Origin: PVC group bacterium
GTDB taxonomy: Bacteria > Omnitrophota > Gorgyraeia > B26-G9
NCBI GenBank assembly: GCA_024231215.1
Contig: JAAEQR010000072.1
Location: forward strand, 449,210 to 513,209
DNA length: 64,000 nucleotides
Direction of reading: 5' to 3'
In this document: piece after piece, positions 1-20,485 of the stretch
How the letters are laid out: every line of letters begins with the position of its first letter
How positions within the stretch are numbered: the stretch's first letter is position 1
Position numbers and translations under genes: made by a program
Notes under the pieces: model-generated
What the model saw: the letters and a program-made list of their open reading frames with translations, nothing else
What the model was told of the DNA's origin: nothing
Database searches by the model: none

Positions 1-5
1 CATTA

Positions 6-857
6 TTGAAAAAACATAGAGACAAAGGGTTGGTGTTTTTCAATCAAATTCAGCCTTGGAAAAAACAAAATGACGAATACTGTGGAGAAGGCTTGGAGTC
101 ACAGCCATATTTAGTGAATCTGATTAAGGATGGACTTGCCGGGGATGTGTTTTTTTACTATTTACCGCATGATCACGAACTTATGCAAGGTTTTACCGAA
201 ACAACGGGATATCCGTTACACACGGTGTTATTAGCGGCAAATAAAAAATTATTTTTTTATGAATATGATCAAAAGTATCAGGCAGATATTTCCTATGTCG
301 GAAGTTTGTTAAAAAATAAAAAGGTTTTTATTAAAGATCATCTCTTTCCTCTGATGAAAAAATATAAAGTAAAAGTATACGGCAGTGATTGGAACCTGGT
401 AAATAAATTGCAGGGATATATGCAAAAAGTCGGCCAATATTTTAATATTGAGCCATTAAAACATGTACGTAAAATAGATTTGCCGATTGAAGATGAAAGA
501 AAGGTTTATTCTTCTTCGCTGATTTCTTTAAATATTCATCTTGATGGGCAAAGAAAATTTGGCAGTGACTTTAATGAAAGAACATTTAAAATTATAGCCA
601 GCGGCGGGTTTGAGATATGTGATAATGTTGCTGTTTTGCGCAAGTATTTTAATGATCAGGAATTAGTAGTAGCAAATAATACCAAGGACTGGTTTGAAAA
701 AATAGATTTTTTTATAAAAAATCCTGATAAAAGAATTCCAATTATTGAAGCCGGGAAAAAGAAAATCTTGGCGGAGCATACTTATGAACATAGGGTGGCT
801 CAACTGATAGATATTTATAATACGATAAAACATGGAAATAAACCAACGTCAAATTGA
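6..857 (+). CDS. glycosyltransferase, CgeB-like group-1 C-terminal domain; reading frame is open to the window start, so probably 5'-truncated
   Basis: ORF has no in-frame stop back to base 3. C-terminal segment ...PIIEAGKKKILAEHTYEHRVAQLIDI matches the HTYxHR signature of CgeB/DUF3880-type glycosyltransferase C-terminal domains. Confidence 0.5.
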   Translation: MKKHRDKGLVFFNQIQPWKKQNDEYCGEGLESQPYLVNLIKDGLAGDVFFYYLPHDHELMQGFTETTGYPLHTVLLAANKKLFFYEYDQKYQADISYVGSLLKNKKVFIKDHLFPLMKKYKVKVYGSDWNLVNKLQGYMQKVGQYFNIEPLKHVRKIDLPIEDERKVYSSSLISLNIHLDGQRKFGSDFNERTFKIIASGGFEICDNVAVLRKYFNDQELVVANNTKDWFEKIDFFIKNPDKRIPIIEAGKKKILAEHTYEHRVAQLIDIYNTIKHGNKPTSN

Positions 858-2398
858 TAAATAATATGAAAAACAAAATTGTTCTTTTTTCTTCAGATTT
901 GCAATATGCCGGGGTGCCGATGGCATTATTAGCGGTTACGAAGCTGCTGGATAAAAAAGAAAATGATATTAAAATTATAACAAGCGCTGAATATCCCAAG
1001 TATAAGGAGGAGATTCTAGCTCAATGTGAAGGTGCTTTGTGTTTTGGGATAAGCTGTATAAGTGGTACTCCGATAAAATCAGCGATAGAAGTTTCCAAGA
1101 TGGTTAAGGAAAAATATCCATCATTGCCGATTATCTGGGGGGGATGGCAGGCGATTACCTTGCCGGATGTTACATTACAGGAGCCCTATGTTGATTATCT
1201 CTGTACTGGGCAGGGGGAGCGTACATTTTCTGAGTTTATTCGTATGCTGCGGGAAAATGATTTTGGTTCAATTGATAAGATAGACGGATTAAGTTATAAG
1301 AATAATGGGGTTATTACACACAATAACAGAAGAGTTCCTGAGGACTTGAATTCTTTTCCCGATTTTGATTTAGATCTGATCGAATGGGATAAATATCTGG
1401 AAGTTACAGATTTTGGAAATAATGTTTTGAGAATTGTAACAAGTTATGGGTGTCCTTATCGCTGCGGTTTCTGCTGTGAGCCTAACAATTCTAAACGACA
1501 ATGGAAATCTCTAACGGCAGAACGAATAATTTCTCTTCTGAAAAAAATCAGGTCTAAAGTTGATTTTGACGGCTTGATGATCGTGGAAAATAATTTTTTT
1601 GTCAGAGAACAGAGAGTTATAGATTTTTGCAATGGATTGATCGAGAATGGGTTTAATATAAAACTTGGGCAGGTCAACGGTAGGACAAATAAACTGGTTA
1701 CCTATAAAGAAAGTACCTGGGGATTACTCAAACAGGCAGGATTACATGATATTCTAATTGGGGCTGAGTCAGCGAATGAGGAGACATTACGGCTCATTAA
1801 TAAAGATGCAACGGTTGAGCAAACATATTTATTAAGTCGGATTTGCCGAAAATACGAGATAAAATTAATTGCCTCTATTATTGTCGGGCTTCCAATCCCG
1901 GCTTATTTTAGTGAGAATTCTCAAGATGCGTTTGATGTTGAATTTAGGGAGATAACTAAATTATACAAAGACCTCTTTCTCTTGGACAGAAATAATCGTT
2001 TGATTATATTTATTTATGCTCCTTTGCCGTTTTCTCCGATGTATGAGAGAGCTATTGAATTAGGTTTTCGTCCCCCGAAAAATCTTGAAGAATGGGGAAA
2101 TTATGATTTAACAGAGACACATATAGGTTGGATTTCTAAAAAGAATATTGTTAAAGTTCAAGCCTTAGTTTATGTTTCTTCGATGTTAGCTATAGATTTT
2201 AAGTATTTAGTGCAAAAGCTACCTATTATCTTGAGAGTATTTGTTATCCCGATGTTGGGCATTGCAAATTGGGTAAGTAAATTGCGTTTGCGATACGATT
2301 GTTATTCATTTCCGTTAGACAGCTATATGTTTTATGCGGCTTTGAAATTATTTAAGAGGTTAAATAAGACATATAAATTTATCAATATAACTAACTAA
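854..2398 (+). CDS. B12-binding domain / radical SAM protein (class B radical SAM family)
   Basis: N-terminal Rossmann-like B12-binding region (KIVLFSSDLQYAGVPMALLAVTKLL). Radical SAM cysteine triad CPYRCGFC (CxxxCxxC) at YGCPYRCGFCCEP. ATGA start/stop overlap with upstream gene. Confidence 0.75.
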   Translation: MINNMKNKIVLFSSDLQYAGVPMALLAVTKLLDKKENDIKIITSAEYPKYKEEILAQCEGALCFGISCISGTPIKSAIEVSKMVKEKYPSLPIIWGGWQAITLPDVTLQEPYVDYLCTGQGERTFSEFIRMLRENDFGSIDKIDGLSYKNNGVITHNNRRVPEDLNSFPDFDLDLIEWDKYLEVTDFGNNVLRIVTSYGCPYRCGFCCEPNNSKRQWKSLTAERIISLLKKIRSKVDFDGLMIVENNFFVREQRVIDFCNGLIENGFNIKLGQVNGRTNKLVTYKESTWGLLKQAGLHDILIGAESANEETLRLINKDATVEQTYLLSRICRKYEIKLIASIIVGLPIPAYFSENSQDAFDVEFREITKLYKDLFLLDRNNRLIIFIYAPLPFSPMYERAIELGFRPPKNLEEWGNYDLTETHIGWISKKNIVKVQALVYVSSMLAIDFKYLVQKLPIILRVFVIPMLGIANWVSKLRLRYDCYSFPLDSYMFYAALKLFKRLNKTYKFINITN

Positions 2399-2435
2399 TA
2401 TCTTTAGAAGCTAGAGTTATTTTAACAGTTATGCT

Positions 2436-5003
2436 GTGCGAAAAAAGGAGGGAATATTGTTTGCATTACAGAAAATTAAAAAAATAGATTTTATCCTGAT
2501 TGTTATTATTGTTTCAATGATCGTTATTGCTTATGGCAAAGTCATGGAAGCATCATTTCAGCAGGATGAATGGTATAGTCTGGCTAACTATCAGGTTACA
2601 AAAGATTTTTCTATAATGGAGACTATTCGGTACTTTACGCAAGGAGGGAATGTGTTCCCGCGGCCGCTAAGTTCATCTTTAAGCTTGATAAACTTTCGTT
2701 TATTTGGAATAAATTATGCTTTGTACTATGTTTGTTCTATTTTGACTCATATAGCTGTGAGCTTGTCTTTATATTATATTATTTTTGCTATGACCAAAAA
2801 GCGGGAACTTGCTTTCTTGACTGGGGTATTTTTTGCTATAAGTAGTACCGGTGCCCAGGCGATTACCTGGATAAGTGCCTATTTTGGGTCTGCTCAGTCT
2901 ACGTTTTTTGCTCTTTGGAGCCTGTTTTTTTACTTTAAATATCTTATTGGGGGGCAGGATAATAAGAAGCTGCAATATGCGGCAGTGGGATTGTTTTTAA
3001 TCGCAATATTATTTAAAGAGACTGTGGCTAATTTAATATTAATTTTCCCTTTCATGCACTTAATTCTTGCTAAGAAACGTGGATTGTTTGTTTTTTTAAA
3101 AGAACAGATTCCTTTATTAGTAACAATAGTTGGGTTTTTTCTGATTTTCTTTTCTCCTAGTTTTTTTAAAACTGCGGATAGTTCTATGGTGAGCCAAGCA
3201 GCTTCGGGGAGTAGTAATATAGCGGTATTATTATATCGTTCTGTTACTATTCCTTTTTCTGTTCTTGTTGATGTATATTTCCCTCCAGTATTCTTGTATA
3301 AGTGGAGTGCAATAATTACCCAGCTGGATCACCCATTTTTTTATTCTCAAAAAGGCACAAGTGTATATGATATTTTTATTGGATCAGCGGGGGCTAATCT
3401 AGTAACTTGCTATTTGCTATTAGGAATTTTATCATGTGTAGCGGGAGTATTGTCATATCTTAAAAAACACGATCAAAAGCTTTTTAATATTTTTTTAATT
3501 TTCTTTGGTTTTGTATTGACTGGCGGATTACCGCTTATTTTTGCGTATAGTGCTTCCTTTGCGGTTTTGGAATCAAGATATCTTTATTTGCCAGCAATTG
3601 GAGGAATGTTTATGCTGGCAGTAGCTGTAGATATTATGGGAAAGATGATTGGGAATTTATTTTCTGAAGATTGGAAGGAAACAGTCTATTATTGTTTGAT
3701 TGGTTTGCTTGCAATTGGTTTTTGTATTTTTAATATTCCAAAGATACGAGAGCCGATAAAAGAACTTGTGAGGATTTCTAAGGTGCGTAACTCTATTGTC
3801 GAAGGAATCGGTTCTAACTTGTCTCCTAAATCAAAAAGATTTTTTATTTATACTAAAAGCAATAGATCTTATTATGGGAAGGCTGAAACAATATTGCCAT
3901 TTCAGTGCGGAGCAGGGTATCTTTTGATGACAAGACATAGTATGAATAATGAAATGTTTATTCCGTTGTTGAAAGATAATCATTTATGGGATCTTACTAG
4001 TCAGGGAGTAGCTGAAGCTGACGGGATAGTTTTCGGATACTTCAGAGAATATCCTCTTTTTAAAAAAGCTATTTCAGAATATGAGGTAAAGGCTGAGGAA
4101 TTATATGCTTTTACTTGGGATGGGTATGCTGGGGAATTCGAAGATATTACTATCAGTGAGAGGCAACAGTTACAGGAAATCAAATACTATATAAATAAAG
4201 ATTTTGATAAAGATAGTTTGAAAATTGGTGTTCCAGATGGGAAGACTCGTCGTTTTTATTATGAAGGATTCATGTCTTCCCCGGTTGCAAAAATTGTTAA
4301 TCTTAAAAATGATAAAGAGTGGTTTTTTTGTGATTTTGCTAAAGGTGATGCTCGCAGACCTGAACCGAATACACAGGATTACTATTTAACCTATAAATAT
4401 GGGCTGGAAGATACTTATGGCGGAGCTTTAGTGGTCTATCATCTCTCAGGCAATGGGACAAATATTTATAGTATTCCCGGGGTAGTCTATGGTAAGCAGG
4501 TAGCTGGGTTGCATTATGCTCGAGCTTCGACTGGGGCTGTCCCGAAAAAGATTAGAAGAAAAAATGATGGAAGTATAGATATTGAGTTTGAAGCAACTTA
4601 TAATTCGGGGCAAGGGGTGCAGTTTGGAGCTTTACTTAATGAACCCGTTTTGTATTATATTCCCGGCAAAGGGGTCGAGGATATAGTTAAGGGGATGTAT
4701 GCAAAAGTTGAAGCTGACGGGAAGAAGAAGGCTTACGAGATAAGTTTGCCTGGGCAGCTGAAAACCTTGCGGTCATATTGGGAAAGTGATATATTAAGGT
4801 ATCAACCAAAGGCATTTATAGCCGGGAAAATGATACAAATTGTTAAATGGAGCGGATTAGAGACAAATACTTTGCGAATTGAATTTGCCCAGCCACCGGC
4901 AAAGGGAGCAGAAATTTTGGTTCCTTTGCTGGTTACTTATGCTCCTAAGCAAGAAGATGATAATATACTTATAATGAATTTTGCTGCTTGTGTTGCAAAA
5001 TAA
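2436..5003 (+). CDS. large polytopic membrane protein, putative GT-C-fold glycosyltransferase, with a C-terminal ~245-aa conserved soluble domain paralogous to the next gene
   Basis: About 11 predicted hydrophobic helices in the N-terminal 430 aa. D44-E45 (QQDEWYS, nt 2565-2570) immediately after TM1, as in the catalytic first loop of GT-C enzymes (ArnT/PMT-like). C-terminal domain (aa 598-845) is ~70% identical to aa 626-870 of the following ORF. Confidence 0.55.
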   Translation: MRKKEGILFALQKIKKIDFILIVIIVSMIVIAYGKVMEASFQQDEWYSLANYQVTKDFSIMETIRYFTQGGNVFPRPLSSSLSLINFRLFGINYALYYVCSILTHIAVSLSLYYIIFAMTKKRELAFLTGVFFAISSTGAQAITWISAYFGSAQSTFFALWSLFFYFKYLIGGQDNKKLQYAAVGLFLIAILFKETVANLILIFPFMHLILAKKRGLFVFLKEQIPLLVTIVGFFLIFFSPSFFKTADSSMVSQAASGSSNIAVLLYRSVTIPFSVLVDVYFPPVFLYKWSAIITQLDHPFFYSQKGTSVYDIFIGSAGANLVTCYLLLGILSCVAGVLSYLKKHDQKLFNIFLIFFGFVLTGGLPLIFAYSASFAVLESRYLYLPAIGGMFMLAVAVDIMGKMIGNLFSEDWKETVYYCLIGLLAIGFCIFNIPKIREPIKELVRISKVRNSIVEGIGSNLSPKSKRFFIYTKSNRSYYGKAETILPFQCGAGYLLMTRHSMNNEMFIPLLKDNHLWDLTSQGVAEADGIVFGYFREYPLFKKAISEYEVKAEELYAFTWDGYAGEFEDITISERQQLQEIKYYINKDFDKDSLKIGVPDGKTRRFYYEGFMSSPVAKIVNLKNDKEWFFCDFAKGDARRPEPNTQDYYLTYKYGLEDTYGGALVVYHLSGNGTNIYSIPGVVYGKQVAGLHYARASTGAVPKKIRRKNDGSIDIEFEATYNSGQGVQFGALLNEPVLYYIPGKGVEDIVKGMYAKVEADGKKKAYEISLPGQLKTLRSYWESDILRYQPKAFIAGKMIQIVKWSGLETNTLRIEFAQPPAKGAEILVPLLVTYAPKQEDDNILIMNFAACVAK
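4227..4965. repeat. copy A of a ~740-bp intergenic-distance duplication encoding a conserved soluble domain (paralogous to 6893-7628)
   Basis: Translated segments align colinearly: GVPDGKTRRFYYEGFMSSPVAK...QDYYLTYKYGLEDTYGG...HLSGNGTNIYS...LLNEPVLYYIPGKGV...LRSYW..DILRYQPKAFI...VTYAPKQED versus GIPDGESREFIKQGIMSCPVAK...QDYYLIYKYGFEDTYGG...VTYAPRQED. Confidence 0.8.
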
Positions 5004-5017
5004 AATACAAGGCTTAA

Positions 5018-8000
5018 ATGCGCAACGTAAAAAACTTTTTATATAGTACAATTATAATTTTAGTAGGAATTATTGCATGGCATAGGGTTCTGGATTTTGT
5101 TTTTTTTAAAGCTTATGAACCTGGCTGGCTGATGGCTCGTTACAATCCAAATTTGAGCTTTGACCAATTGCTGCTTAGCCTAATGCGGGCACATGCTTTT
5201 ATCTATTTTTTGTGTTATAAGGTTTTTGGATGGAATCCCATGGGGTGGTATGGGGTAAGTTTAGTTCTACATTTGTTAGCAGCATTGTTGATAGCGTATC
5301 TTACAGGATTTATTACTAAAAGTGAAAAGACCGGGTTTATTGCCGGTCTTTTTTTTGTTGCTAATGTTGCTTATAATGATGTGCTTACCTGGGGCAGTTT
5401 CAATGCATATTATGCTTTTATCATGTGTGCTTTTATTGCTGCTATTTTATTTTTTGGTTATTATCGTAAAACCAGCAATAGAGATTATTATTTGCTTTCT
5501 GTGGTGATGTTTTTTTTAGCCTTGGTTACCCGTGAAACAGCTTTACTTATTCCTATTTTTATTTTTCTTTTTGATATAATTATAATCCACCATTTGAAAG
5601 TGAAAGAGTTCTTTTTTCAGAATAAACGAAAACTGCTTGTATATATTCCATATTTTGTTTTGGCAGTTGCCTATCTTATATTTAGGGCCAAATTTATTTG
5701 CGGACTAAGTGGCGATAGTATGGATGGGCAGGTAAAGCTGGGGATGAAGCTAGTAGCGGAAAAGCAGTATATTTTATTCTTTAGCAGAGTTATGCTGGCT
5801 TTTGGACGTAATTTTGCGGCGCATATTGTGCCGTATGTGTTATTAAATAAATTACCCGCAATATTATATTCTTTGCTGGGTTGGGTGTTTTGGGGAAGTA
5901 TTGGACTTGTTGTCATTGCTGTTCGGAAAAATAAACAGCTTTTTACAGTTTTGTTCTTTGCTTTATTATGGATGAGCATTCAGACTCTTTTTATTTCACT
6001 GGCTATGCCGGCAACAGAGGAAATACTGGCGAGAAAGTATCTTTGGAATACCAGAAGATACAGTTATTATCCATTTTTTGGAGTGGTTTTATTTGGCAGT
6101 GTAATTATTGATCACATTGTTAATGTTATAGCAACAAAAAAGAAAATGTTTCACGGGCGATCGAATGTTCTTTTATGGACTATTGTCTGGGTGATTGTAG
6201 CGGGAAATATTTTAATGATCTGGAACGTTGAAGCTTTTGTGGCTAAGACTGTTTATGATCCGTCTAAAAAGTTTTTTAATGACCTTAAATCTTTTTATCC
6301 TATGCTTCCTGAAGGACTTGCTATTTACCAATATCCTAATGCTTCCGGGTTGTCAGATTTATTCTATGAATGGAATTGGACCAAGGAATTAAAGCATCCT
6401 AATCTTAAGGGGCAGCCTTTTCGCAGTGAAACGCAAATGGCCAGAATGTTTGAAAAAATAGAAAAAAAACAATTTTCTTTTGATGAAATATACTTTTTTG
6501 ATTATAACGATAAGGATGGATTAAGGGATTTTACAAAAGAAGCAAAACATTGGATTGAAAACTATCAAGAAGTAGAGATTTCTCTAAGTCGGGAGATTGA
6601 TTCCTATTTTGTGCTGCCAAAGAAGCGAGGAGCGATTAATATTATTCCGGAAGTAATAATTTCATTAAAAGATGAAAAGATAGCTCCTGTTGAATTTCCG
6701 TATTTTCTAGAAATAAAAATGAAAGCGACAATGATAAATGATCTAAAATTTCCTTTTTGCGTATCAGGAGACCGATTGTTACTGGAATCTGATATTTTGA
6801 AAAATGTTAATATATCTCGTGAAAATCGAGGCGCTATTAAACAATTACCATTGCATATAGGTCAGAGTGTACTGCCGAGTAGCTTACGGCTTGGCATTCC
6901 GGATGGGGAGTCCAGAGAGTTTATAAAACAGGGGATTATGAGTTGTCCGGTAGCAAAAGTAATGAATCAAAAGGATAACAGAGAATGGTTTTTTTGTGAT
7001 TTTGTTAAAGGGCAAGAGCGGATAGCTGAGCCCGGAACACAAGATTACTATTTAATATATAAATATGGGTTTGAAGATACTTATGGAGGGGCAGGGTTAG
7101 TATATCATTTATCCGGAAATGGCACTAATATATATAGTGTGCCCGGGACTATTTATGGTCACGAGGTAGCTGGTTTACAATATGCCAGAGCAGCAAACGG
7201 TGATTTGCCGAGGAAGATTACCCGTAAAGATGATGGGCAGATAGATATTGAATTTGCTTCTGTGTATAATGCGGGGCAGGGATTACAGTTTGGAGTTTTG
7301 TTGAATGAGCCGGTATTGTATTATATCCCTGGCAAAGGGGTGCAGGATATTGCCAAGGGCAAGTATGCAGAAATTAAAGCAGACGGTATAAGAAAAAGAT
7401 ATGAAATTGGTTTAAGCGGAGAGCTAAAAGCCTTGCGGTCATATTGGGGAAATGATATATTGAGGTATCAACCTAAGGCTTTTATCGATGGTAAGATGAC
7501 ACAAATTGTTAAATGGTGCGGATTAGGTACTAATACTCTTACAGTTGAATTTGCGCAACCGCCGCGCAGGGGAGCTAATATATTGATCCCTATGCTTGTA
7601 ACATATGCTCCGAGGCAAGAAGATAATATAATTATTACTTCTGAAGACAAACTGAAAAATAAATTGCATAAGAGTGAGATTGTAAATCCTGAAGTATTAC
7701 GTTCACTTACTATCTATGCTAAAGATAGAAAGGAATTTCTCGATAAAGCTGTTGTTTCTGTGAGCGGGACTCATGAACAATGGCCGGGTGAGCCGTTTTT
7801 GCATTTTTTACCGGACAATCTCATGGATGGGGATTTTGGAGATCGTTCTCAATGGATTTCAGAATCTAAGCCTTCCTGGATTGTTATAGATCAGGGGGAA
7901 TCAAAAAACGTCGGAGCTCTAATCTGGAAGGCAAAAGCTGGTTCGGGGAGAGTGCCCAGTACATATTCGTATTACAGTTCCAATGATGGTAAAGAATGGC

Positions 8001-8554
8001 GCTTTATTAAGAAGGAGAAAGGGAATAATCAAACAGAAAAGATTGATATTTTTCATCCTGCGATAAATGGGCGATATTTTAAAATGGAGATTGAAACAAC
8101 GTCAATGGGTGATTATGCAATGTTGCAGGAGCTTGAGCTTGTAGGAGAAGAAGCGAGTAAAATTTTCACCTACTACCAAATCAGGCAGGAACTTATACAT
8201 GATAGTAAACATTTCACTTCATATATAGGATCAAAAGATGAAATGGGAAACATGCTTTCTCTTGGACTCGATGGGGGATGGGCAAAGCTTTCCTGGCGGA
8301 CAAGAAGTGGTTGGGAAGAAGATTGTTTTATTGAGTTTCCTTATTATGTTGATGGCAAGTACCATGTTTATAGGTTAGATATTAAAGAAGGAGATGTCTA
8401 TGGTCGTCAGGGCGAGTTTTTGAAAAGAAAATTACATGAGCTGCGTCTTGATCTAGGGGAATTTCCGGCAAAATATGAGATAGAGTCGATTAAATTAATT
8501 CCAAAATATAATTTAAGGAGTAATAATGAAAATTCGAATTCCACAGTACGATAA
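5018..8554 (+). CDS. very large membrane protein (1178 aa): N-terminal polytopic domain (GT-C-like), central paralogous domain, C-terminal F5/8 type C (discoidin / CBM32-like) domain
   Basis: Multiple TM helices in the first ~400 aa. Central domain paralogous to the previous ORF. C-terminal region ...FLPDNLMDGDFGDRSQWISESKPSWIVIDQG...INGRYFKMEIETTS resembles the discoidin/F5-8 type C pattern (D-G-[DN]..T.W ... GRY.K). Confidence 0.55.
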   Translation: MRNVKNFLYSTIIILVGIIAWHRVLDFVFFKAYEPGWLMARYNPNLSFDQLLLSLMRAHAFIYFLCYKVFGWNPMGWYGVSLVLHLLAALLIAYLTGFITKSEKTGFIAGLFFVANVAYNDVLTWGSFNAYYAFIMCAFIAAILFFGYYRKTSNRDYYLLSVVMFFLALVTRETALLIPIFIFLFDIIIIHHLKVKEFFFQNKRKLLVYIPYFVLAVAYLIFRAKFICGLSGDSMDGQVKLGMKLVAEKQYILFFSRVMLAFGRNFAAHIVPYVLLNKLPAILYSLLGWVFWGSIGLVVIAVRKNKQLFTVLFFALLWMSIQTLFISLAMPATEEILARKYLWNTRRYSYYPFFGVVLFGSVIIDHIVNVIATKKKMFHGRSNVLLWTIVWVIVAGNILMIWNVEAFVAKTVYDPSKKFFNDLKSFYPMLPEGLAIYQYPNASGLSDLFYEWNWTKELKHPNLKGQPFRSETQMARMFEKIEKKQFSFDEIYFFDYNDKDGLRDFTKEAKHWIENYQEVEISLSREIDSYFVLPKKRGAINIIPEVIISLKDEKIAPVEFPYFLEIKMKATMINDLKFPFCVSGDRLLLESDILKNVNISRENRGAIKQLPLHIGQSVLPSSLRLGIPDGESREFIKQGIMSCPVAKVMNQKDNREWFFCDFVKGQERIAEPGTQDYYLIYKYGFEDTYGGAGLVYHLSGNGTNIYSVPGTIYGHEVAGLQYARAANGDLPRKITRKDDGQIDIEFASVYNAGQGLQFGVLLNEPVLYYIPGKGVQDIAKGKYAEIKADGIRKRYEIGLSGELKALRSYWGNDILRYQPKAFIDGKMTQIVKWCGLGTNTLTVEFAQPPRRGANILIPMLVTYAPRQEDNIIITSEDKLKNKLHKSEIVNPEVLRSLTIYAKDRKEFLDKAVVSVSGTHEQWPGEPFLHFLPDNLMDGDFGDRSQWISESKPSWIVIDQGESKNVGALIWKAKAGSGRVPSTYSYYSSNDGKEWRFIKKEKGNNQTEKIDIFHPAINGRYFKMEIETTSMGDYAMLQELELVGEEASKIFTYYQIRQELIHDSKHFTSYIGSKDEMGNMLSLGLDGGWAKLSWRTRSGWEEDCFIEFPYYVDGKYHVYRLDIKEGDVYGRQGEFLKRKLHELRLDLGEFPAKYEIESIKLIPKYNLRSNNENSNSTVR
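6893..7628. repeat. copy B of the duplicated ~740-bp domain-coding segment (paralogous to 4227-4965)
   Basis: See copy A; about 70% amino-acid identity over ~245 residues, same order and spacing of conserved blocks. Confidence 0.8.
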
Positions 8555-9185: not shown

Positions 9186-9238
9186 ATTAAGATCAAAGTA
9201 TTATAAGGAAATACTAGATTGTAAAAGAGGAGATAGTT

Positions 9239-9910: not shown

Positions 9911-9971
9911 AAACAAGGTGGACTTTTTAAGATAAATAACTCATTCTTTGAATTTAATATAGGAGATTGTA

Positions 9972-12449: not shown

Positions 12450-13474
12450 TGATAAACTTTAAAAAGATAAGAGATAAACAGTTAGCGTTTTTAATTTCAC
12501 TGATTATTGTTCTTTCTTGTTTTTTGATTGCAGATACTAATTTAGCGAAAAAAGTTGTTAGTGTGGAACGGGAATATCCGGTTAATTCCGAATCGCTGTT
12601 GAAGAAAATACCGTTGCCGATTAAAAGTGATTATGTGGTGAAAATCAAGTATCAGTCTAGAAAGATGATGGGGGCGATGGTTTGGTTAAATCAATATCCA
12701 TTAGAAATGAGGGCGTCTAACGTATCAAATAAATTGAATGTTACATGTTATTATTATGCACCGAAAGACAAAGTAATGCTTGGGGATAATGTTTTCGAAA
12801 TTAAGTTCCACGGAGAACATCCATCAACAGTAACGGTGCGTATGAATAACTACGTTGCAGCAGTAGCAGATAATAATATTATTATTTCACTAGCAAACTC
12901 TGTTTTTAAAAATAAGGCTTGGGTTAAACTTTTCTTTTTTGGGATTATTTTGTTTGGTTGTGTTTTTTGGGTATGGCGGTTTCTGGTTTTTATGGGTATG
13001 GTTCTTTTTCATGAATCATTTCAGAGAAGTACTTTTAACACAGCACTTTCTTTTTCCCCCTGCACGTTATTATTTTTTATTCTTTCGATTAAGTCTTATC
13101 AAGGTCCATATTTGATTGCGATAAGTCCGGGGTATCTTTTATTATTATTTGTTCTTTTAACAGGGTTTACTAACGCTGTTTTAAATCTTATCCATGTATT
13201 AATCTTGAGGAAAGTATTTCCGTCGATTAAGCGTGAGTATATTCTGCCGACAGCTCGGGTGGAGATTCCCCCCTGGCTTATAGGGGGCGGAAAGTGGTTT
13301 AAGAAAAGGAGTTTAGCTGATAAATGCATAATATTCTGTTTATTTGTTTTTAGTTGTTCTGTTTTTCTTTTTATGCTGGGGGTGTCGAAATGGGGAGAGC
13401 CCCTTGCTAACGTAGCATATACCAGCGTACTTATAGGTATTTCCATGAAATTATTTAGCTTAACTAAGAAATAA
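12449..13474 (+). CDS. membrane protein of unknown function
   Basis: ATGA-type coupling to the upstream gene. N-terminal TM helix, ~130-aa soluble segment, then several TM helices. Confidence 0.5.
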   Translation: MINFKKIRDKQLAFLISLIIVLSCFLIADTNLAKKVVSVEREYPVNSESLLKKIPLPIKSDYVVKIKYQSRKMMGAMVWLNQYPLEMRASNVSNKLNVTCYYYAPKDKVMLGDNVFEIKFHGEHPSTVTVRMNNYVAAVADNNIIISLANSVFKNKAWVKLFFFGIILFGCVFWVWRFLVFMGMVLFHESFQRSTFNTALSFSPCTLLFFILSIKSYQGPYLIAISPGYLLLLFVLLTGFTNAVLNLIHVLILRKVFPSIKREYILPTARVEIPPWLIGGGKWFKKRSLADKCIIFCLFVFSCSVFLFMLGVSKWGEPLANVAYTSVLIGISMKLFSLTKK

Positions 13475-13481
13475 TAATCTT

Positions 13482-15941
13482 GTGAAAAGCAAAATTTTAA
13501 TTTTAGCATTTTTTGTGCTATTGAGTATAATAGCCACATATCCTCTGATTATCCATTTTGATGAACAGCTTTTTGGTAATCCTACAGATAATTTAGCTGC
13601 AGTCTGGAATTTCTGGTGGGTTAAGACTGCTGTGCAGCAAAACATTTCAGATTTGTACATACCTATGTTAGCGGCTCCTTATGGGGTCGATGTTAGTGCA
13701 ACGCCTTATTATCCAGTTTGGAATTACATGAATGCAAGATTAGCTCTTTTGATGGGGGAGATTGCTACCTATAATATCCAGATTCTATTAGGATTTATTT
13801 TTTCCGGTTTTTGTATGGCGTATATGATTTATCGGTTTACAAAAAAGCGGACAATTGCTTTAATCGTAGGAACAATCTTTACTCTTTCTCCATACCACTT
13901 TGCGCAAGCCTTTGAGTATCTAGCATTAAGTAATATGCAGTGGATGATTATATATGTAATAAGTCTTTTTAATCTAAAGCGGAAAACTAATTACTTAAAT
14001 GGAATAATTTGTGCGGTGGCTTTGGCTATGATTGGTTTTTTTGATTATTACTATCTGTATTTTATGATTATCTTTACCGGAGTATTTTTGGTTTATTGTG
14101 CATGGTATTACAGGAAGCAATTAAATAAAAATATATTTCTTAAAAAAATTAAAGTTATCTTGTTTTCTGCGATGGTACATTTGATTGTTTTGGTTCCGGG
14201 GATTACCCATATTATTTTTCCGAATAAATCTGCACAAGTTATAGCACAGCCTTCAGGTGTTGATTTTGTCCGTCCGCTGAATCATTTATTTGCGGATTCT
14301 GCAAGGGTGCTCAATTATTTTTTACCAGCTCCTTTTCATCCTGTTCTAGGTAAAATAACTGAGCCGTTGATAGGCACTTTTCTCTACGGTGATAACTTTT
14401 TTGGTAATGCGTTATATCTGGGGTATGTGGGTATTTTCTTGGCATTTGTTTGTATTTCCCGCTGGAGGAAAGAATCTGCCTTAGAAAAAAAAGACAGGAT
14501 AGGGGAGGAAGATAATTTCACAATAAGCTTCTTTTTTGCAGCGTTTTTTATTTTTATGATTTTCTCGTTCCCTCCGTATTGGCAAATAGGCAAAGTTATG
14601 ATTCCATTCCCTTCATTTTTTTTATATAAGATAGTTCCGATGTTTCGCAATTATGCCCGGATGGGGGTATTAGTATTGATATCTGTATGTGTGCTTTCCG
14701 GATTTGGTTTGAAGTATATATTTAAATCAATCCGGGAATCAAAAAAGAGGTTGGCATTGAGTGGTGTGTTTTTCATGCTTATATTTTTGGAGTTTTTACC
14801 CTTTCCTCCGGCTAGAATTGTCGATTGTATGAATATACCGGCGGCTTATCAATGGCTGAAGGAGGATTCCACGGATTTTATTATTGCGGAATATCCATTA
14901 GAAGCGGATGAACGTCTCTATTTATTTTATCAGAGGATTCATGCTAAGAAGATGATTAACGGTGCTATGCCCGGGACATATGCCTATGAAGTAAGGAGTA
15001 AAATCCTAGATATCGAAAATGAACAAACATCGATGATGCTTAGTTTTCTTGGGGCGAAATATGTGTTGATTCATCGGGATAGTTATCTTAACTATGAGGG
15101 AGGTCAGGTGCTAGGTCAGATCCCAAACTTAAATGGAGTGTCGGGACTTAAATTACTGAAAAAATTTGAAGATATCGATATTTATGAAGTAATTGCCTCA
15201 CCGTTGGATCCTAGAAAAGTTGTTGTTAGAAAAAAGAGTATGGAAAAAAAATCTTTTGTTGCAGAAGAAATTATTCCCGCAAATGGAGTTTTTAAATTTA
15301 AGCCGGGAGATTCGTTGAAATATACAGTGAAATATTTCAATTTAATACCAGCCCTTAATGTTCAAATAGATATGTGCCGGGAAGCGAATAATTTGGAAAA
15401 TGAAATTATTTTGAAGGCGAAGATCCATAGTACTAAAATGTTTTCTTATTTAGTGAATTTTCAAGCGGTATTTAATTCATTTTTTGATCGGAAATATTTA
15501 AGCCCTTTCCGATATGAAGAATCTTATGGTATTGTAGGACAGAAGCCGCGGAGTAAATATGCGGTTTTTGACCGTGGCAGCCAGGTTATGAGAACAAGTG
15601 ATAAAGAAGTTAAAATTCCGCCACATACGCAGGATCCTATTTCTATAATTTTTTTCCTTTCAAGTCAGAAATTTGAGCTTGGGAAAAAAATAGAAATAAA
15701 TTTAAACCCCGGTAAATCTAACTATAAGGTAGAAGCTGAGGTCTTAGGCAAAGATAAGATTAGTGTATTAGGTCGAAAAAAATATGCATGGAAAGTAGGT
15801 GTAACTCTTTTTAGAGGGAAAAAAGAACAAAAGAAGAATGCTGAGGCGATTTTATGGTTTTCAGTCACAGATAAACAAGAATTATTGGCATTGAGAGCAT
15901 CAACTAAAATTGGTGTTTTTAATATGGACTTAAGGAAATAA
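13482..15941 (+). CDS. large polytopic membrane protein, putative GT-C-fold glycosyltransferase (819 aa)
   Basis: D27-E28 (HFDEQLFG, nt 13560-13565) immediately after TM1. More than 10 hydrophobic helices, then a ~400-aa C-terminal soluble region. Confidence 0.55.
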   Translation: MKSKILILAFFVLLSIIATYPLIIHFDEQLFGNPTDNLAAVWNFWWVKTAVQQNISDLYIPMLAAPYGVDVSATPYYPVWNYMNARLALLMGEIATYNIQILLGFIFSGFCMAYMIYRFTKKRTIALIVGTIFTLSPYHFAQAFEYLALSNMQWMIIYVISLFNLKRKTNYLNGIICAVALAMIGFFDYYYLYFMIIFTGVFLVYCAWYYRKQLNKNIFLKKIKVILFSAMVHLIVLVPGITHIIFPNKSAQVIAQPSGVDFVRPLNHLFADSARVLNYFLPAPFHPVLGKITEPLIGTFLYGDNFFGNALYLGYVGIFLAFVCISRWRKESALEKKDRIGEEDNFTISFFFAAFFIFMIFSFPPYWQIGKVMIPFPSFFLYKIVPMFRNYARMGVLVLISVCVLSGFGLKYIFKSIRESKKRLALSGVFFMLIFLEFLPFPPARIVDCMNIPAAYQWLKEDSTDFIIAEYPLEADERLYLFYQRIHAKKMINGAMPGTYAYEVRSKILDIENEQTSMMLSFLGAKYVLIHRDSYLNYEGGQVLGQIPNLNGVSGLKLLKKFEDIDIYEVIASPLDPRKVVVRKKSMEKKSFVAEEIIPANGVFKFKPGDSLKYTVKYFNLIPALNVQIDMCREANNLENEIILKAKIHSTKMFSYLVNFQAVFNSFFDRKYLSPFRYEESYGIVGQKPRSKYAVFDRGSQVMRTSDKEVKIPPHTQDPISIIFFLSSQKFELGKKIEINLNPGKSNYKVEAEVLGKDKISVLGRKKYAWKVGVTLFRGKKEQKKNAEAILWFSVTDKQELLALRASTKIGVFNMDLRK

Positions 15942-15957
15942 AAGAGGGGAATATCAC

Positions 15958-16470
15958 ATGCTAAATGCTGAAAAATTGATTGTTTTAGATTTTGGATGTA
16001 AGACGGAAAAATGCGAGGGAGCAATTGGGGTGGATATTGACCCTACGGTTAATCCTGATGTTGTTCATGACTTCAATGTTTTTCCTTATCCATTTAAAGA
16101 TAATTATGCAGATAAAATATACGCAAAACATATAATAGAACATTTGGATAATCCTAAAAAGTTTATTGAAGAAATCTATCGTATACTCAAACCTGGTGGA
16201 ATAGTTTTTATTGAGACTCCGCATTTTTCTAATTATGTTGCATATGCAGAACCTCAGCATAAGTTATTTTATTCTTATTTTATGTTTAGGGAGATAATGT
16301 CGGGAGTACGCAAAAACATTGAGGTTTTGCAGTGGAAGCTTACTTTTTATAGGACATTCCGGTTTGTTGGGGTCCAGGCTTTAGCAAATAAGTTTCCGGT
16401 AGAATATGAGCGGTTTTGGACATATATGTTTCCGGCTGAAAATATTGTCTTGAAATTTAAAAAAATATAA
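15958..16470 (+). CDS. small SAM-dependent methyltransferase-domain protein
   Basis: IVLDFGCKTEKCEGAIGVDID (motif I-like) and PGGIVFIETP (motif IV-like). Confidence 0.5.
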   Translation: MLNAEKLIVLDFGCKTEKCEGAIGVDIDPTVNPDVVHDFNVFPYPFKDNYADKIYAKHIIEHLDNPKKFIEEIYRILKPGGIVFIETPHFSNYVAYAEPQHKLFYSYFMFREIMSGVRKNIEVLQWKLTFYRTFRFVGVQALANKFPVEYERFWTYMFPAENIVLKFKKI

Positions 16471-16584
16471 TAGGGCAGAAGCGGTTAATGGAGTTTTTCG
16501 GCTGGAAATAGCCATAGAATTAAAATTGTTTTTATGGTAAAATTAGATAATATTTGATAAGTAAGTAGAACTAGAGGAGGAAGT

Positions 16585-17631
16585 GTGAAGGTATTAGTGA
16601 CCGGGGGAGCCGGATTAGTTGGATCACATTGTGCCGAATATTATGCGAATAAAGGTGCTAAGGTTGTCGTTCTGGATAATTTGATTCGCTCTCAGATATT
16701 TAAATCCAAAAAAGAGAGTGTAGAGTATAACTGGAGACGCCTTGGTAAATTTAAAAATATAAAAAGAATAAAAGGTGATGTTCGAGAAGAAAAAGACGTG
16801 TTGTCGGCTATTGGAAAAGGAGTAGATGCGGTAATCCATGCGGCAGGACAGCCGGGTATTCCTTCGTCGATACGGATGCCTAAAGAAGATTTCAGTATTA
16901 ATGCTTTTGGAACTCTTAATGTTCTGGAGTGTTTGCGCAAAAAAAGTAAAAAAGCTGCTTTTGTCTATTGTTCGACTAATAAGGTTTATGGAGAGAATGT
17001 AGATAAAGTGGCATTAAAGCAGCTGAAAACACGATATATGTTTAAAGGGATGAAGGGCGTTGACGAGCATATGCTTACTGATTTGGCGGGACATACACCG
17101 TACGGAGTAAGTAAATTGGTTGGGGATTTATACACACAGGAATATGCGCGTATTTATGGGATGAAGACAGCAGTATTTAGAATGAGTTGTATCTATGGAG
17201 ATAGACAGTTTGGATATGAGGATCAGGGCTGGGTGGCCTGGTTTATTATTGCTTGTCTTTTAGGAAAAAAAATTACTATTTATGGAAACGGTAAGCAGGT
17301 TCGCGATTTGTTGTATGCTGGTGATCTAGCCAAAGCTTTTGATTTATTTATAACAAATCAAAAACATAGACATGTTTTAGTGAATATTGGCGGGGGGCCG
17401 GAAAATACGACTTCATTATTGGAATATTTAAAGAGGTTAGAAGGTTTGGTTGGAAAGCCTCCTAAGGTTAAGTTTGCGGATTGGCGACTTTCTGATCAGC
17501 GAGTATATATTAGTAATATTGATAAAGCAAAAAAGATATTGTCCTGGAAACCAGCGGTAAGTATTGATCAGGGATCACTAGAGCTTACCAAATGGATCAA
17601 GAATAATAAAAGTATGTTTTGGATAGATTAA
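16585..17631 (+). CDS. NAD-dependent sugar epimerase/dehydratase (SDR family; CDP-paratose 2-epimerase-like)
   Basis: GTG start after GGAGGAAG RBS. VTGGAGLVGSH (GxxGxxG). Catalytic YGVSK (YxxxK). SCIYGDRQFGYEDQGWVAWF block typical of the CDP-sugar 2-epimerase subgroup. Confidence 0.75.
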   Translation: MKVLVTGGAGLVGSHCAEYYANKGAKVVVLDNLIRSQIFKSKKESVEYNWRRLGKFKNIKRIKGDVREEKDVLSAIGKGVDAVIHAAGQPGIPSSIRMPKEDFSINAFGTLNVLECLRKKSKKAAFVYCSTNKVYGENVDKVALKQLKTRYMFKGMKGVDEHMLTDLAGHTPYGVSKLVGDLYTQEYARIYGMKTAVFRMSCIYGDRQFGYEDQGWVAWFIIACLLGKKITIYGNGKQVRDLLYAGDLAKAFDLFITNQKHRHVLVNIGGGPENTTSLLEYLKRLEGLVGKPPKVKFADWRLSDQRVYISNIDKAKKILSWKPAVSIDQGSLELTKWIKNNKSMFWID

Positions 17632-17656
17632 GTAATGTTATGGAGGAGGAAGAAGA

Positions 17657-18517
17657 ATGAAGGGTATTATTTTGGCTGGAGGCAGAGCTACAAGGCTTTA
17701 TCCGATTACAAAGGTAGTTTGTAAACAGCTGCTTCCCTTGTACGATAAACCGATGATATATTATCCTTTATCAACGCTTATGCAGGCTGGAATCAGAGAT
17801 GTATTGATTATATCTACCCCGTATGATTTGCCCCGGATTAAAGAATTGTTTTTAGATGGCAAAGAAATAGGGATTAATATTTCTTATGCAGAGCAGGCTG
17901 AGCCTAAGGGGATTGCAGATGCGTTTGTTGTGGGGAAAGAATTTATTGGCAATGAAAAAGTATGTTTGATTTTGGGGGATAATATTTTCTATGGTAATGA
18001 AATGTCGGAATATCTTAAAGAAGCTATGAGTTTTCAGCAGGGAGCAGCTATTTTTGGTTATTATGTAAAAGATCCCGAGCGGTATGGTGTTATTGAGTTT
18101 GATCAGGCGCACAATGTAGTTTCTATAGAGGAAAAACCCAAACAGCCAAAATCTCATTGGGTTGCTACCGGACTTTATGTCTATGACAATGAAGTTGTAA
18201 ATATTGCGAGTAATCTTGCTCCTTCGCAACGAGGGGAACTTGAGATTACCGATGTTAACAATGTTTATTTGAGTAAAAAACAATTAAAAGTAAAATTGCT
18301 TGGCCGGGGGTATGCTTGGCTGGATACAGGTACATATGACTCTCTTATAGATGCATCTGTTTTCATTAAGACAATTGAGGAACGACAGGGGCTAAAAATA
18401 GGTTGTGTGGAGGAAATTGCTTATCGTATGGGGTATATTGATAAAGAACAAGTGAAAAATCTAGCGAAGAAGATAAATACAGATTATGGTAATTATCTTC
18501 GTAGTATTATCACGTAG
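17657..18517 (+). CDS. rfbA: glucose-1-phosphate thymidylyltransferase
   Basis: [54 protein letters not shown] is near-consensus RmlA N-terminus. Strong GGAGGAGG RBS. Confidence 0.9.
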
Positions 18518-18571
18518 GGGTTTGATTTATCAAATCCCCTAATCAGTAGTTACAATTATGGAGTAAAATTT

Positions 18572-19993
18572 ATGAAAAAAAGTATTTATTTTATAATGGC
18601 CGGAGGCGAAGGGATGCGGCTATGGCCGATGAGTCGGTCTCATTTTCCGAAACAGTTACATTCTTTGTTGGGTAAAGAATCAATGCTACAACAGTCAATA
18701 GGCAGGCTTTTGAAAATAGCAGACCCAGAGAATATTCTTATCGGGACTCGGGAAGATTTATATTTTTCGGTTAAGGAGCAATGGGCAAATATGAATTTAA
18801 AAGCGGATCCGTGGTTGATTCTGGAGCCTTTAAGCCGGAATACAGCACCGGCAATTGCCTTGGCTATTCTTGCCTGCCGTGAAAGATTTGGAGAGGATGT
18901 AATAATTTCTACATTTGCGGCAGATCATGTAATTAAGGATAAAAAGAAATTTGAAGAGCTTTTGAAAACCGGGATACGGATTGCCCAAAAAGGACAGATT
19001 GTAACTTTTGGTATTGTGCCGGATTATCCGGAAACGGGATATGGTTATATAAAATCCGGAAAGAAAATCGAAAAAGATGTTTTTGAAGTGGCACAGTTCA
19101 AAGAAAAACCCTCTTTGCAGACAGCAGAGAAGTATGTAAAACAGGGTAATTATTTTTGGAACAGCGGCATGTTTATTTTTGATAGCGGAGTTGTTGCCGA
19201 AGCGTTAAAGAAGTTTTCGCCTGAGGTGTGGAAAACAGCTGAAAAAGTTTGGAAGGCAAAAAGAAAGAAGAACGGAGGAGTAGTTTTTCCTCAGAGTCTA
19301 TTTAGTAAATTTTCCAAAGTTTCTATAGATTATGCGGTTATGGAAAAGGCTTCCAAACTGGCTGTAATCAAGGCTGATTTTCGCTGGTGTGATGTTGGCT
19401 GCTGGCGTATGGTGCATGAGATGTCAGAGAAGGACAAAAACGGAAATGTTTTTTCCGGGAATATATTCAGCGTGGATTCAAGTCGCAGCTTTATAAAATC
19501 TGAGAAGCGTTTTGTTGCTGCGGTAGGGGTGCATGATTTGGTTGTTATTGATACACCTGATGCATTGCTTATTTCAGAGCAAGGTCGCAGTCAGGATGTG
19601 AAAAAAGTGGTAGAAAAGCTAAATGCTCAACAATCACAGTTGACAAAGTTTCATGCTACAGTATATAGGCCCTGGGGGAATTATACTGTACTTGAAGAAG
19701 GTCCGGGTTATAAAATTAAACGTATGGTTGTAAAACCAAAACAAAAACTGTCTTTACAAAAGCATAACTTTCGGAGTGAACATTGGGTAGTAATTTCAGG
19801 TAAAGCACGGATTATAAATGAACGCAATTCAATTCTGCTAAAAGCCAATGAGAGTATTTTTATTCGCAAAAAAGGAAAACATCGAATTATTAATCCGTAT
19901 AATACAGAGCTGGTAATTATCGAGGTTCAGACCGGAACAAATATAAGTGAAGATGACATCGTGAGATATGAAGATATTTACGAACGCATATAA
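18572..19993 (+). CDS. manC: mannose-1-phosphate guanylyltransferase / mannose-6-phosphate isomerase (bifunctional, C-terminal cupin)
   Basis: FIMAGGEGMRLWPMSRSHFPKQL nucleotidyltransferase motif. C-terminal cupin block GKARIINERNSILLKANESIFIRKKGKHRIINP. Confidence 0.85.
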   Translation: MKKSIYFIMAGGEGMRLWPMSRSHFPKQLHSLLGKESMLQQSIGRLLKIADPENILIGTREDLYFSVKEQWANMNLKADPWLILEPLSRNTAPAIALAILACRERFGEDVIISTFAADHVIKDKKKFEELLKTGIRIAQKGQIVTFGIVPDYPETGYGYIKSGKKIEKDVFEVAQFKEKPSLQTAEKYVKQGNYFWNSGMFIFDSGVVAEALKKFSPEVWKTAEKVWKAKRKKNGGVVFPQSLFSKFSKVSIDYAVMEKASKLAVIKADFRWCDVGCWRMVHEMSEKDKNGNVFSGNIFSVDSSRSFIKSEKRFVAAVGVHDLVVIDTPDALLISEQGRSQDVKKVVEKLNAQQSQLTKFHATVYRPWGNYTVLEEGPGYKIKRMVVKPKQKLSLQKHNFRSEHWVVISGKARIINERNSILLKANESIFIRKKGKHRIINPYNTELVIIEVQTGTNISEDDIVRYEDIYERI

Positions 19994-19999
19994 TAGAAA

Positions 20000-20029
20000 T
20001 TGGCAGGAATAAAAGAGATAAGGTATACT
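20000..20029 (+). promoter_or_regulatory. sigma-70-like promoter (TTGGCA, 18-nt spacer, TATACT) driving the structured RNA
   Basis: TTGGCA at 20000-20005, TATACT at 20024-20029, immediately after the manC stop. Confidence 0.4.
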
Positions 20030-20432: not shown

Positions 20433-20485
20433 TTTAATAATTAGAAATCTGTATTTATTAAGTCTGTGAAAGGGGGTGAATAGTA

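Follow-up and report, generated by a model that had tools for sequence, protein, structure and literature searches.

The closest described counterparts of the locus considered here are the multi-component transmembrane glycosylation systems, whose general scheme has been reviewed (PMC8035078) and among which GacI, an enzyme without transmembrane (TM) helices, requires the small membrane partner GacJ (PMC8035078). Precedents for glycan binding are AftD's carbohydrate-binding modules (CBMs; 10.1101/2019.12.22.885152) and the CBM of GT136 (PMC11127046), while the GT-C enzyme TfpW sets a precedent for the glycosylation of a pilin (10.1101/2020.04.19.049825). We analysed a window of 64,000 nucleotides (nt) from an uncultured member of Omnitrophota (assembly GCA_024231215.1, contig JAAEQR010000072.1, positions 449,210 to 513,209 of the forward strand), whose first 20 kb encode four large GT-C-type membrane proteins, named A, B, C and E, a further membrane protein D, one glycosyltransferase of family GT2, and genes for sugar-nucleotide supply and methylation. 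Members of Omnitrophota are uncultured and in many cases ultra-small, and next to nothing is known of the chemistry of their envelope. We consider it probable that these genes form a multi-component extracytoplasmic (transmembrane) glycosylation locus, the acceptor most likely being a polysaccharide or a lipopolysaccharide (LPS)-linked glycan with its backbone genes upstream.

The four large proteins are encoded by open reading frames (ORFs) at 2436–5003 (A, 855 amino acids, aa), 5018–8554 (B, 1178 aa), 9972–12449 (C, 825 aa) and 13482–15941 (E, 819 aa), all on the + strand, as are all of the genes examined in the first 42 kb. These coordinates and sizes agree with an earlier reading of the DNA made from its letters alone (the sequence-only reading), which had called the four ORFs consecutive. 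However, a methyltransferase gene and the GT2 gene lie between B and C, and D (341 aa, 12449–13474), a fifth conserved membrane protein overlooked in that list, lies between C and E. Where at least ten TM helices per protein had been predicted, we found about 9–12 hydrophobic segments in each; the N-terminal 440 aa or so form a multi-helix membrane domain, and large soluble domains come after it.

The membrane domains of A, B, C and E gave no direct Pfam or NCBIfam match, and PDB searches with single sequences and family profiles returned nothing meaningful; hits to YodM (E 0.004) and to an AglB fragment (E 0.32) were set aside as insignificant. To that extent, the proteins could be something other than glycosyltransferases, either transporters or membrane proteins of another kind that carry surface domains. 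Fold and family comparisons gave a different picture. We gathered and aligned homologues of E (28), of C (27) and of A and B together (30), modelled A and C with AlphaFold (AF2) and searched their folds with Foldseek, and assigned B and E from profile homology. The A model (predicted local distance difference test, pLDDT, 77, rising above 85 for the membrane portion) contains a helix bundle, and its top 15 Foldseek matches are all GT-C enzymes (STT3, DPY19, ArnT, AglB, PglB and EmbA). The C model (pLDDT 87.5; predicted template-modelling score, pTM, 0.88) likewise contains a helix bundle and is best matched by mycobacterial AftD (6w98, E 2.6e-10), followed by STT3 and ArnT. GT-C enzymes were retrieved with a probability of 1.0, whereas transporters of the major facilitator superfamily and others reached at most 0.44, with a TM-score of about 0.1. 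Since transporter matches are so poor, we rejected that identity, and because the genes moreover sit among sugar-nucleotide and glycosyltransferase genes, a function other than glycosyl transfer deserves almost no credence: the fold searches effectively refute it.

For the two proteins placed by homology, profile–profile comparison linked E to C with 98.7% probability (E 3e-16, 475 columns) and to A with 96.2%, and C to A with 96.9%. B was recovered over its membrane domain by an A-family profile from which A and B had been left out (aa 58–439, i-E 4.6e-23). Relatives of the large proteins are occasionally recognized by curated families. YfhO matched 6 of the 28 E-family relatives (down to 6e-11) and PMT_2 four, with PTPS_related, DUF6541 and DUF2079 among the others; GT-C_AftD (PF11847) matched two of the 27 C-family relatives (best 6e-9); and weak PMT_2 matches occurred in four of the 30 A-family relatives, with PMT in one. 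C itself has no PF11847 match at E <= 1, and A and B have neither a PMT or PMT_2 Pfam match nor a MIR domain. For E, the precomputed annotation of an identical protein lists PF19830/DUF6311; our hmmscan run, with a Pfam copy that possibly lacks the PF19830 model, found no GT-C family, and PF19830 matched no family member. Because the Foldseek results for A and C, the profile comparisons for E and the leave-out A-family profile for B all converge, the large proteins are GT-C-type, A and C as judged from predicted structures and B and E from sequence homology, and they belong to three families missed by current profile libraries. The proposal that the four ORFs are GT-C glycosyltransferases is thus sustained, and the placement in transporter families that would have spoken against it was not seen.

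In GT-C enzymes of the protein O-mannosyltransferase (PMT) family, a DE motif is found in loop 1. The sequence-only reading had noted an acidic pair directly after the first TM helix (TM1) in three of the four proteins, and the codons are present in all three: GATGAA (DE) at 2565–2570 in A, GATGAT (DD) at 10101–10106 in C and GATGAA (DE) at 13560–13565 in E. Conservation bears out the pairs of A and C, but not that of E. The A family has F-Q-Q-D-E-W right after TM1, with D44 in 29 and E45 in all of the 30 members, and the C family has G-G-D-(D), in which G42, G43 and D44 are invariant (27/27 for D44) and D45 occurs in 21/27; both patterns are far above chance. D27 and E28 of E, on the other hand, recur in only 2/28 and 1/28 sequences, while D36 (13587–13589) is conserved in 26/28. 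Judged by this alignment, the DE pair of E is not the functional candidate. Topology was derived from the positive-inside rule together with fold homology. The N-termini preceding TM1 are rich in Lys and Arg, so that loop 1, which carries the conserved acidic residues and in C and E is itself acidic and poor in Lys and Arg, is predicted to be extracytoplasmic, the location it has in every GT-C enzyme of known structure. In AftD, K39 and D41, at the N-terminal position equivalent to these conserved acidic residues, are essential (10.1101/2019.12.22.885152).

B departs from this pattern. It has a Tyr (Y33; Y33–E34 at 5114–5119) in place of the near-invariant Asp, the sole exception among the 30 family members, and retains the Glu (E34). 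Since the family Asp is lost, B may not be catalytic, and it is perhaps a pseudo-enzyme partner of A. Separately, B deviates at two other near-invariant positions, Q141 and D/E379.

The soluble parts of these proteins are distinctive. A continues from the membrane domain into a periplasmic alpha/beta domain and then a rare beta-rich C-terminal domain (aa 561–855). A C-terminal region of about 277 aa is common to A and B, with 65% identity by BLAST (B aa 598–873), whereas the membrane domains are only about 25% identical, suggesting that this region was duplicated recently, underwent gene conversion or is under strong constraint. The shared domain spans 4116–5000 and 6809–7642 of the window. 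Very few proteins have it: a search of 1.84 billion representative proteins gave just 16 matching clusters at E <= 1e-3. Its strongest matches are at the C-terminus of proteins of 800–1000 aa with a QQDEW or IGDEW motif; no significant Pfam match was found among them, and the domain corresponds to no Pfam family. B additionally has an F5/8 type C (discoidin) domain (PF00754, aa 931–1038), which is present in 5 of the 30 A-family members, and a further C-terminal domain. C has periplasmic alpha/beta and beta-sandwich domains followed by a C-terminal TM helix, and E ends in a DUF3108 domain (aa 613–818), a family described as a YmcC-fold beta-barrel (PMC4364669).

The GT2 protein (223 aa, 9239–9910, +) is a candidate polyprenyl-phosphate hexose synthase. 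It matches PF00535 (E 1e-24), has a DAD motif at aa 80–82 (9476–9484), and its best solved relative is the dolichyl-phosphate mannose (Dol-P-Man) synthase of Pyrococcus furiosus (5mlz, E 6e-17), aligned over its full length (aa 1–218 against 23–245). Among NCBIfam models, the best were AglJ (7e-38), PpgS (1.5e-18) and the haloarchaeal Dol-P-hexose transferase (2.7e-16). By sequence, the protein is therefore most similar to the polyprenyl/dolichyl-phosphate hexose synthase type, in line with the donor-synthase role proposed earlier. The likeness to GtrB and ArnC proposed with it was not upheld: lacking TM helices, the protein resembles human DPM1, GacI and PpgS instead. Its co-location with the GT-Cs, together with a GT2–PMT_2 fusion in another genome described below, suggests that the GT-Cs use a polyprenyl-phosphate(-diphosphate)-linked donor.

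Membrane protein D has no Pfam or NCBIfam match. Its N-terminus bears a TM helix; the protein also has a beta-rich domain of about 125 aa that is conserved (motifs KY, LNG, YYY and RNY) and four to five TM helices. We weighed whether it might be a GtrA-like flippase or a GacJ-like partner, and found no family signal for or against either.

The remaining genes are consistent with the supply and modification of sugars. The last three are an NAD-dependent sugar-nucleotide epimerase/4,6-dehydratase of the short-chain dehydrogenase/reductase (SDR) type (16585–17631, +), for which the best match is dTDP-glucose 4,6-dehydratase (145 bits, below cutoff); RmlA, the glucose-1-phosphate thymidylyltransferase (17657–18517, +; TIGR01207, scoring 457 bits where the cutoff is 361); and a ManC-type mannose-1-phosphate guanylyltransferase/mannose-6-phosphate isomerase (18572–19993, +), with which the glycan locus ends. 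Profile matches confirm all three of these genes, RmlA above its cutoff, as named in the sequence-only reading (manC, rfbA and an epimerase), and the same holds for its two SAM (S-adenosylmethionine)-dependent methyltransferases and its class B radical SAM enzyme with CxxxCxxC and a B12 domain. The methyltransferases are a class I enzyme (8526–9185, +; PF08241, E 2.5e-17) and a short protein of 170 aa (15958–16470, +; PF08241, E 9e-12). The B12-binding radical SAM enzyme (854–2398, +) matches PF02310 and PF04055, carries CPYRCGFC at aa 200–207 (1451–1474) and has a hydrophobic C-terminal tail. Its nearest PDB relatives are OxsB and TokK, and the NCBIfam models BchE, HpnJ and PhpK match below their cutoffs; as these relatives span diverse chemistries, a methylase is a candidate activity.

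Genes are closely packed along the locus, which extends from nt 6 or earlier up to 19993, with gaps of −29 to +114 nt. Its first visible gene, the 3' part of a GT1-like glycosyltransferase gene (1–857, +; PF13524, E 1e-23; ORF 6–857), has no in-frame stop before nt 6 and appears to run past the start of the window, with the glycan locus continuing upstream. Within 854–20000 there is indeed no Wzx, Wzy or ABC exporter, as had been noted. The accompanying conclusion that this is not a standard O-antigen cluster does not follow: the locus is cut by the window, and the absence of Wzx and similar genes from it cannot be concluded, while Wzx genes are present in related loci.

To place the locus among its relatives, we compared by tblastn eleven further distinct loci with E homologues (loci are designated below by L numbers). 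All close relatives of E in a collection of species-representative genomes belong to Candidatus Omnitrophota. The order E, SDR, a stretch of 0 to 5 kb, ManC, pilin, ParA-CBM48 was found in L001, L006, L010, L013, L014 and L016, although the sequence of L001 stops inside the pilin gene and no ManC could be detected in L014; L005, L017 and L018 keep the same order as far as ManC. Across the islands, SDR is 58–77% and ManC 67–76% identical. D is directly 5' of E in L005/L011, L010, L012 and L013, at 8970–10004 of L005, 8935–9996 of L010, 131–1156 of L012 and 4092–5165 of L013, always abutting an E-type GT-C. Ahead of D, L013 has a C-like gene and L005 a C fragment. What is left in L005 (8380–8949), in front of D and E, is no more than the C-terminal 150 aa of a C-like protein (45% identity), and an AbiEii toxin gene is inserted within the same island (16721–17509); both are signs of locus turnover.

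The region upstream of D and E is variable, comprising GT2 and GT4 genes, one or two B12-radical SAM genes, methyltransferases, and aminotransferase and transketolase-like genes. The L001 island includes a Polysacc_synt gene of the Wzx type, along with several cytoplasmic GT2s. An A orthologue was found among the compared loci only in L004, near a B12-radical SAM gene, a small GT2 (28% identity, full length) and methyltransferases, and B had no orthologue among them. Outside the phylum, an A-family homologue lies in a Wzx-containing polysaccharide locus of a member of Levybacteria in the candidate phyla radiation (CPR; L020). In another uncultured bacterium (L021, 244–2931), an 895-aa fusion of GT2 and PMT_2 (GT-C) is encoded in a glycan locus close to an A-family homologue, and it is a natural physical link between presumed donor synthase and transferase. 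B12-radical SAM genes, often two per locus, recur in L001, L002, L004, L006, L007, L009, L010, L016, L018 and L019, with a close orthologue of the one in our window only in L009 (35% identity).

These comparisons separate a conserved frame (E, D, SDR and ManC) from variable cargo (A, B, GT2, the radical SAM enzyme and the methyltransferases), and E is the conserved core gene of the island. We think it likely that nt 1–19993 are the downstream, visible part of a strain-variable (hypervariable) cell-surface glycan island built on this frame. A pangenome preprint on Omnitrophota lists capsule and LPS glycosyltransferases among the cargo of hypervariable regions. The co-occurrence of Wzx with GT1 or GT2 genes in the loci of L001 and L020 supports a polysaccharide or LPS-linked acceptor, and the coupling of GT2 and GT-C seen in the L004 neighbourhood and in the L021 fusion supports the donor pathway.

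The same pattern bears on whether the locus might instead encode a stand-alone periplasmic lipoglycan pathway resembling that for lipomannan and lipoarabinomannan (LM/LAM), in which four GT-Cs would build a lipid-anchored polymer, for instance a mannan, stepwise from a polyprenyl-phosphate sugar without a Wzx/Wzy-type undecaprenyl-diphosphate repeat unit. Four GT-Cs beside a single polyprenyl-phosphate-hexose-synthase-like GT2 and manC would suit such a pathway, as would the AftD-like C protein and the recurrence of the order C-like, D, E in L013 and partly in L005. The lack of Wzx and Wzy in the visible 20 kb would suit it too, yet the gene at which the locus is cut off encodes a cytoplasmic GT1-like enzyme, and cytoplasmic GT2 and GT4 genes predominate in the syntenic islands of relatives, one of which has Wzx. 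Moreover, only E and D are conserved among the GT-C and membrane genes, whereas A, B and C vary, which fits diversification of side chains or antigens better than a core polymer pathway. A self-contained lipoglycan pathway is thus quite unlikely.

The sequence-only reading had proposed the pilin as a plausible acceptor from the proximity of its gene. The type IV pilin gene (20486–20896, +; G|FTLVE prepilin motif, N_methyl) follows manC after a gap of 492 nt and is a separate unit. The spacer contains a c-di-GMP-I (cyclic di-GMP) riboswitch aptamer (20149–20218, +; RF01051, 36.4 bits against a gathering score of 35, E 1.6e-5), which lies in the pilin leader and marks the boundary of the glycan locus. 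Downstream of it, a hairpin and T-run (about 20237–20279) look terminator-like when read by eye, and a near-consensus extended −10 promoter-like site follows (20404–20432). A weaker second aptamer-like match lies at 20065–20107, and an 80-aa ORF at 20227–20469 was rejected as a gene, as it overlaps the riboswitch leader and terminator region. Matches of the same riboswitch clan occupy the same spacer in L006 (19304–19495) and L001 (21910–21991), with E values of 5e-5 to 8e-5, below gathering, and they suggest c-di-GMP control of pilin expression in this lineage. Given its own riboswitch, the promoter-like site and the 492-nt gap, the pilin gene is a separately regulated unit. The order manC, pilin, ParA is kept in at least six Omnitrophota genomes, including ones without A, B or C homologues, and since it persists whatever GT-C set lies upstream, the adjacency does not track the GT-Cs. 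The argument from proximity is thereby weakened, the neighbourhood being a general conserved synteny.

A protein acceptor still has to be weighed. The GT2 would then make polyprenyl-phosphate mannose, and A, maybe as a heterodimer with B in the manner of Pmt1–Pmt2, would together with the other GT-Cs modify Ser or Thr residues of the pilin or of surface proteins, as in protein O-mannosylation. The PMT_2 and PMT matches of A-family relatives, the PMT-like fold of A and its near-invariant DE after TM1 all agree with this, as do the presence of manC, the conserved order ending in the pilin gene in at least six genomes, and TfpW as a precedent (10.1101/2020.04.19.049825). A further parallel is a streptococcal GT2 plus GT-C system reported to glycosylate Ser/Thr-rich protein regions. 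The fold, however, does not discriminate the type of acceptor, because ArnT, AglB and ALG3 score nearly the same as PMTs against A. A also has no MIR domain, and its periplasmic domains, like those of its family, are of a glycan-binding type (F5/8 type C in 5/30), while its homologues in L020 and L021 sit in Wzx-containing or glycosyltransferase-rich polysaccharide loci. The pilin, in turn, has its own regulatory signals, and the order manC, pilin, ParA persists where A, B and C homologues are missing. Taken together, protein O-glycosylation is unlikely, and the pilin is probably not the acceptor, TfpW providing a precedent that nothing specific in this locus supports; a polysaccharide or LPS acceptor is the more likely.

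A narrower version gives the leading part to A and B, as a pair like Pmt1/Pmt2, one member catalytic and the other degenerate, whose undescribed C-terminal domains would bind the acceptor. Together with C, D and E, this pair would carry out polyprenyl-phosphate-mannose-dependent O-glycosylation of the pilin or surface proteins, or would assemble an LM/LAM-like methylated lipoglycan. We hold this to be improbable, but if it were true, an extensive GT-C pathway would exist outside Actinobacteria, in a diderm, ultra-small and host-dependent candidate phylum.

Under extracytoplasmic glycosylation of a polysaccharide or LPS-linked glycan, the gene products could act as follows. By homology, RmlA, the SDR and ManC would supply dTDP-hexose and GDP-mannose. 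The TM-less GT2, in keeping with its family resemblance, would move a hexose, most likely mannose, from the nucleotide sugar to polyprenyl phosphate at the inner membrane face, and a flippase that is not among the visible genes would carry the lipid-linked sugar to the periplasmic face. There, A, C and E, given their fold and motifs, may each transfer a sugar to the acceptor by means of the conserved acidic residue in the first periplasmic loop, with their large periplasmic domains probably holding the acceptor. B would probably be a non-catalytic or altered partner of A that supplies a discoidin (glycan-binding) domain. The two SAM-dependent methyltransferases and the B12-radical SAM enzyme might modify the sugars, and the acceptor would most likely be a lipid- or LPS-linked polysaccharide with a backbone made by cytoplasmic glycosyltransferases encoded upstream of the window. 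The sugar, the lipid carrier, the acceptor, the roles of B and D and the radical SAM chemistry are given here as we infer them.

Several observations weigh against this scheme. The nearest relatives of A in both structure and sequence are protein O-mannosyltransferases, which for A points to a protein acceptor. The GT2 falls below all curated NCBIfam cutoffs (131 bits against 325 for AglJ), so that its sugar and lipid acceptor are candidates only, and it has no hydrophobic or TM segment and no membrane partner identified in the locus. No initiating phosphoglycosyltransferase, polymerase, ligase or chain-length regulator was found in the visible 1–20 kb. Nor was a flippase of the GtrA, Wzx or MATE type found among ORFs of at least 130 aa in 1–24.6 kb and 30 larger ORFs beyond, a scan that did not cover smaller ORFs, of GtrA size. 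The evidence base, finally, is the sequence and models of an uncultured metagenome-assembled genome.

The rest of the window describes the envelope in which such a system would work. It encodes type IV pilus machinery (PilM, PilO, a secretin, a PilB-like ATPase, PilC and a second pilin), BamA, a uppS-cdsA-dxr-rseP-ispG cluster (27463–32328) that includes undecaprenyl-diphosphate synthase, and, downstream of it, lpxB with a lipid A acyltransferase gene (42021–45097). LpxB, the acyltransferase, BamA and the pilus genes together show a diderm organism with lipid A and type IV pili, and undecaprenyl-diphosphate synthase shows that it makes the carrier lipid as well. The window is low in GC (about 37%). 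The gene behind the pilin gene (21043–22125) encodes a ParA/MinD-type ATPase with an AMPK1_CBM/CBM48 glycogen-binding module fused at its C-terminus, an arrangement conserved beside the pilin in relatives (61–73% identity), and a second, degenerate CbiA-like gene follows (22143–23072). Genes of glycogen metabolism lie at 24643–27457 (a GH57 branching enzyme and a protein with DUF4912 and glucodextranase-B domains), and a link of ParA-CBM48 to the positioning of glycogen granules is possible.

For this lineage, the locus indicates that a variable surface-glycan island can be dominated by extracytoplasmic GT-Cs outside current profile libraries, and that its conserved frame of D, E, SDR and ManC adjoins a c-di-GMP-controlled pilin gene. 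The recurrent B12-radical SAM genes hint at unusual, possibly C-methylated, sugars. For annotation, names can now be given to three GT-C families dark to Pfam and to one rare C-terminal domain, and the gene set is tractable for heterologous glycoengineering.

Comparison with known systems places each component. TfpW of Pseudomonas aeruginosa group IV, encoded beside pilA, uses a lipid-linked donor, and the present case resembles it in the closeness of GT-C genes to one for a type IV pilin. This is a likeness of gene context; here, the pilin is separately regulated behind a c-di-GMP riboswitch, and its adjacency is independent of the GT-C set. With PMT (GT39) and PMT_2/ArnT (GT83) enzymes, the A family shares the near-invariant D-E after TM1, and some of its members give weak PMT_2 or PMT matches. 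In contrast to PMTs, A and B have no direct Pfam match and no MIR domain and carry the rare beta-rich C-terminal domain (16 clusters in 1.84 billion proteins), and B has lost the Asp. Judging from its model, A may work like a PMT, though it is not a demonstrated member of that family.

AftD (PF11847) is the best structural match of C. The two have in common an invariant Asp about 10 residues after TM1 (compare D41 of AftD) and alpha/beta and beta-sandwich periplasmic domains, and two distant relatives of C match PF11847. C is shorter, however (825 against about 1400 aa), with fewer beta-sandwich modules and without the TM13–16 module that binds acyl carrier protein (ACP), and it falls below PF11847; nor does the locus contain a decaprenyl-phosphoarabinose pathway (DprE1/DprE2, UbiA-like). 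E recalls YfhO/DUF6311 proteins of Gram-positive teichoic-acid glycosylation through the YfhO matches of its relatives, the PF19830 annotation and the conserved loop-1 Asp. It differs from them in being fused to DUF3108, paired with D and found in a diderm phylum, and in scoring below the YfhO threshold.

As a whole, the locus is closest to the multi-component systems GtrA-GtrB-GtrC, CsbB-GtcA-YfhO, GacI/J-GacK-GacL and the GT136 pentofuranose systems, with which it shares a GT2 synthase type of GT-A fold beside multi-spanning GT-Cs with an acidic loop residue, periplasmic domains of carbohydrate-binding type on these GT-Cs, and a setting in a surface-glycan locus. Unlike in those systems, the visible genes include no flippase of GtrA, Wzx or MATE type, the GT2 lacks both a TM segment and an identified partner, and one GT2 stands with four GT-Cs of three families, all outside Pfam and NCBIfam, in association with a B12-radical SAM enzyme and the conserved membrane protein D. 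All of the component kinds, and the logic of three- and multi-component systems, are known already, and no concept is overturned. What the present locus adds to them is four GT-Cs of three unannotated families in one locus, the rare C-terminal domain of A and B, the degenerate paralogue B, the conserved D–E pair, the recurrent B12-radical SAM genes, and the phylum in which they occur.

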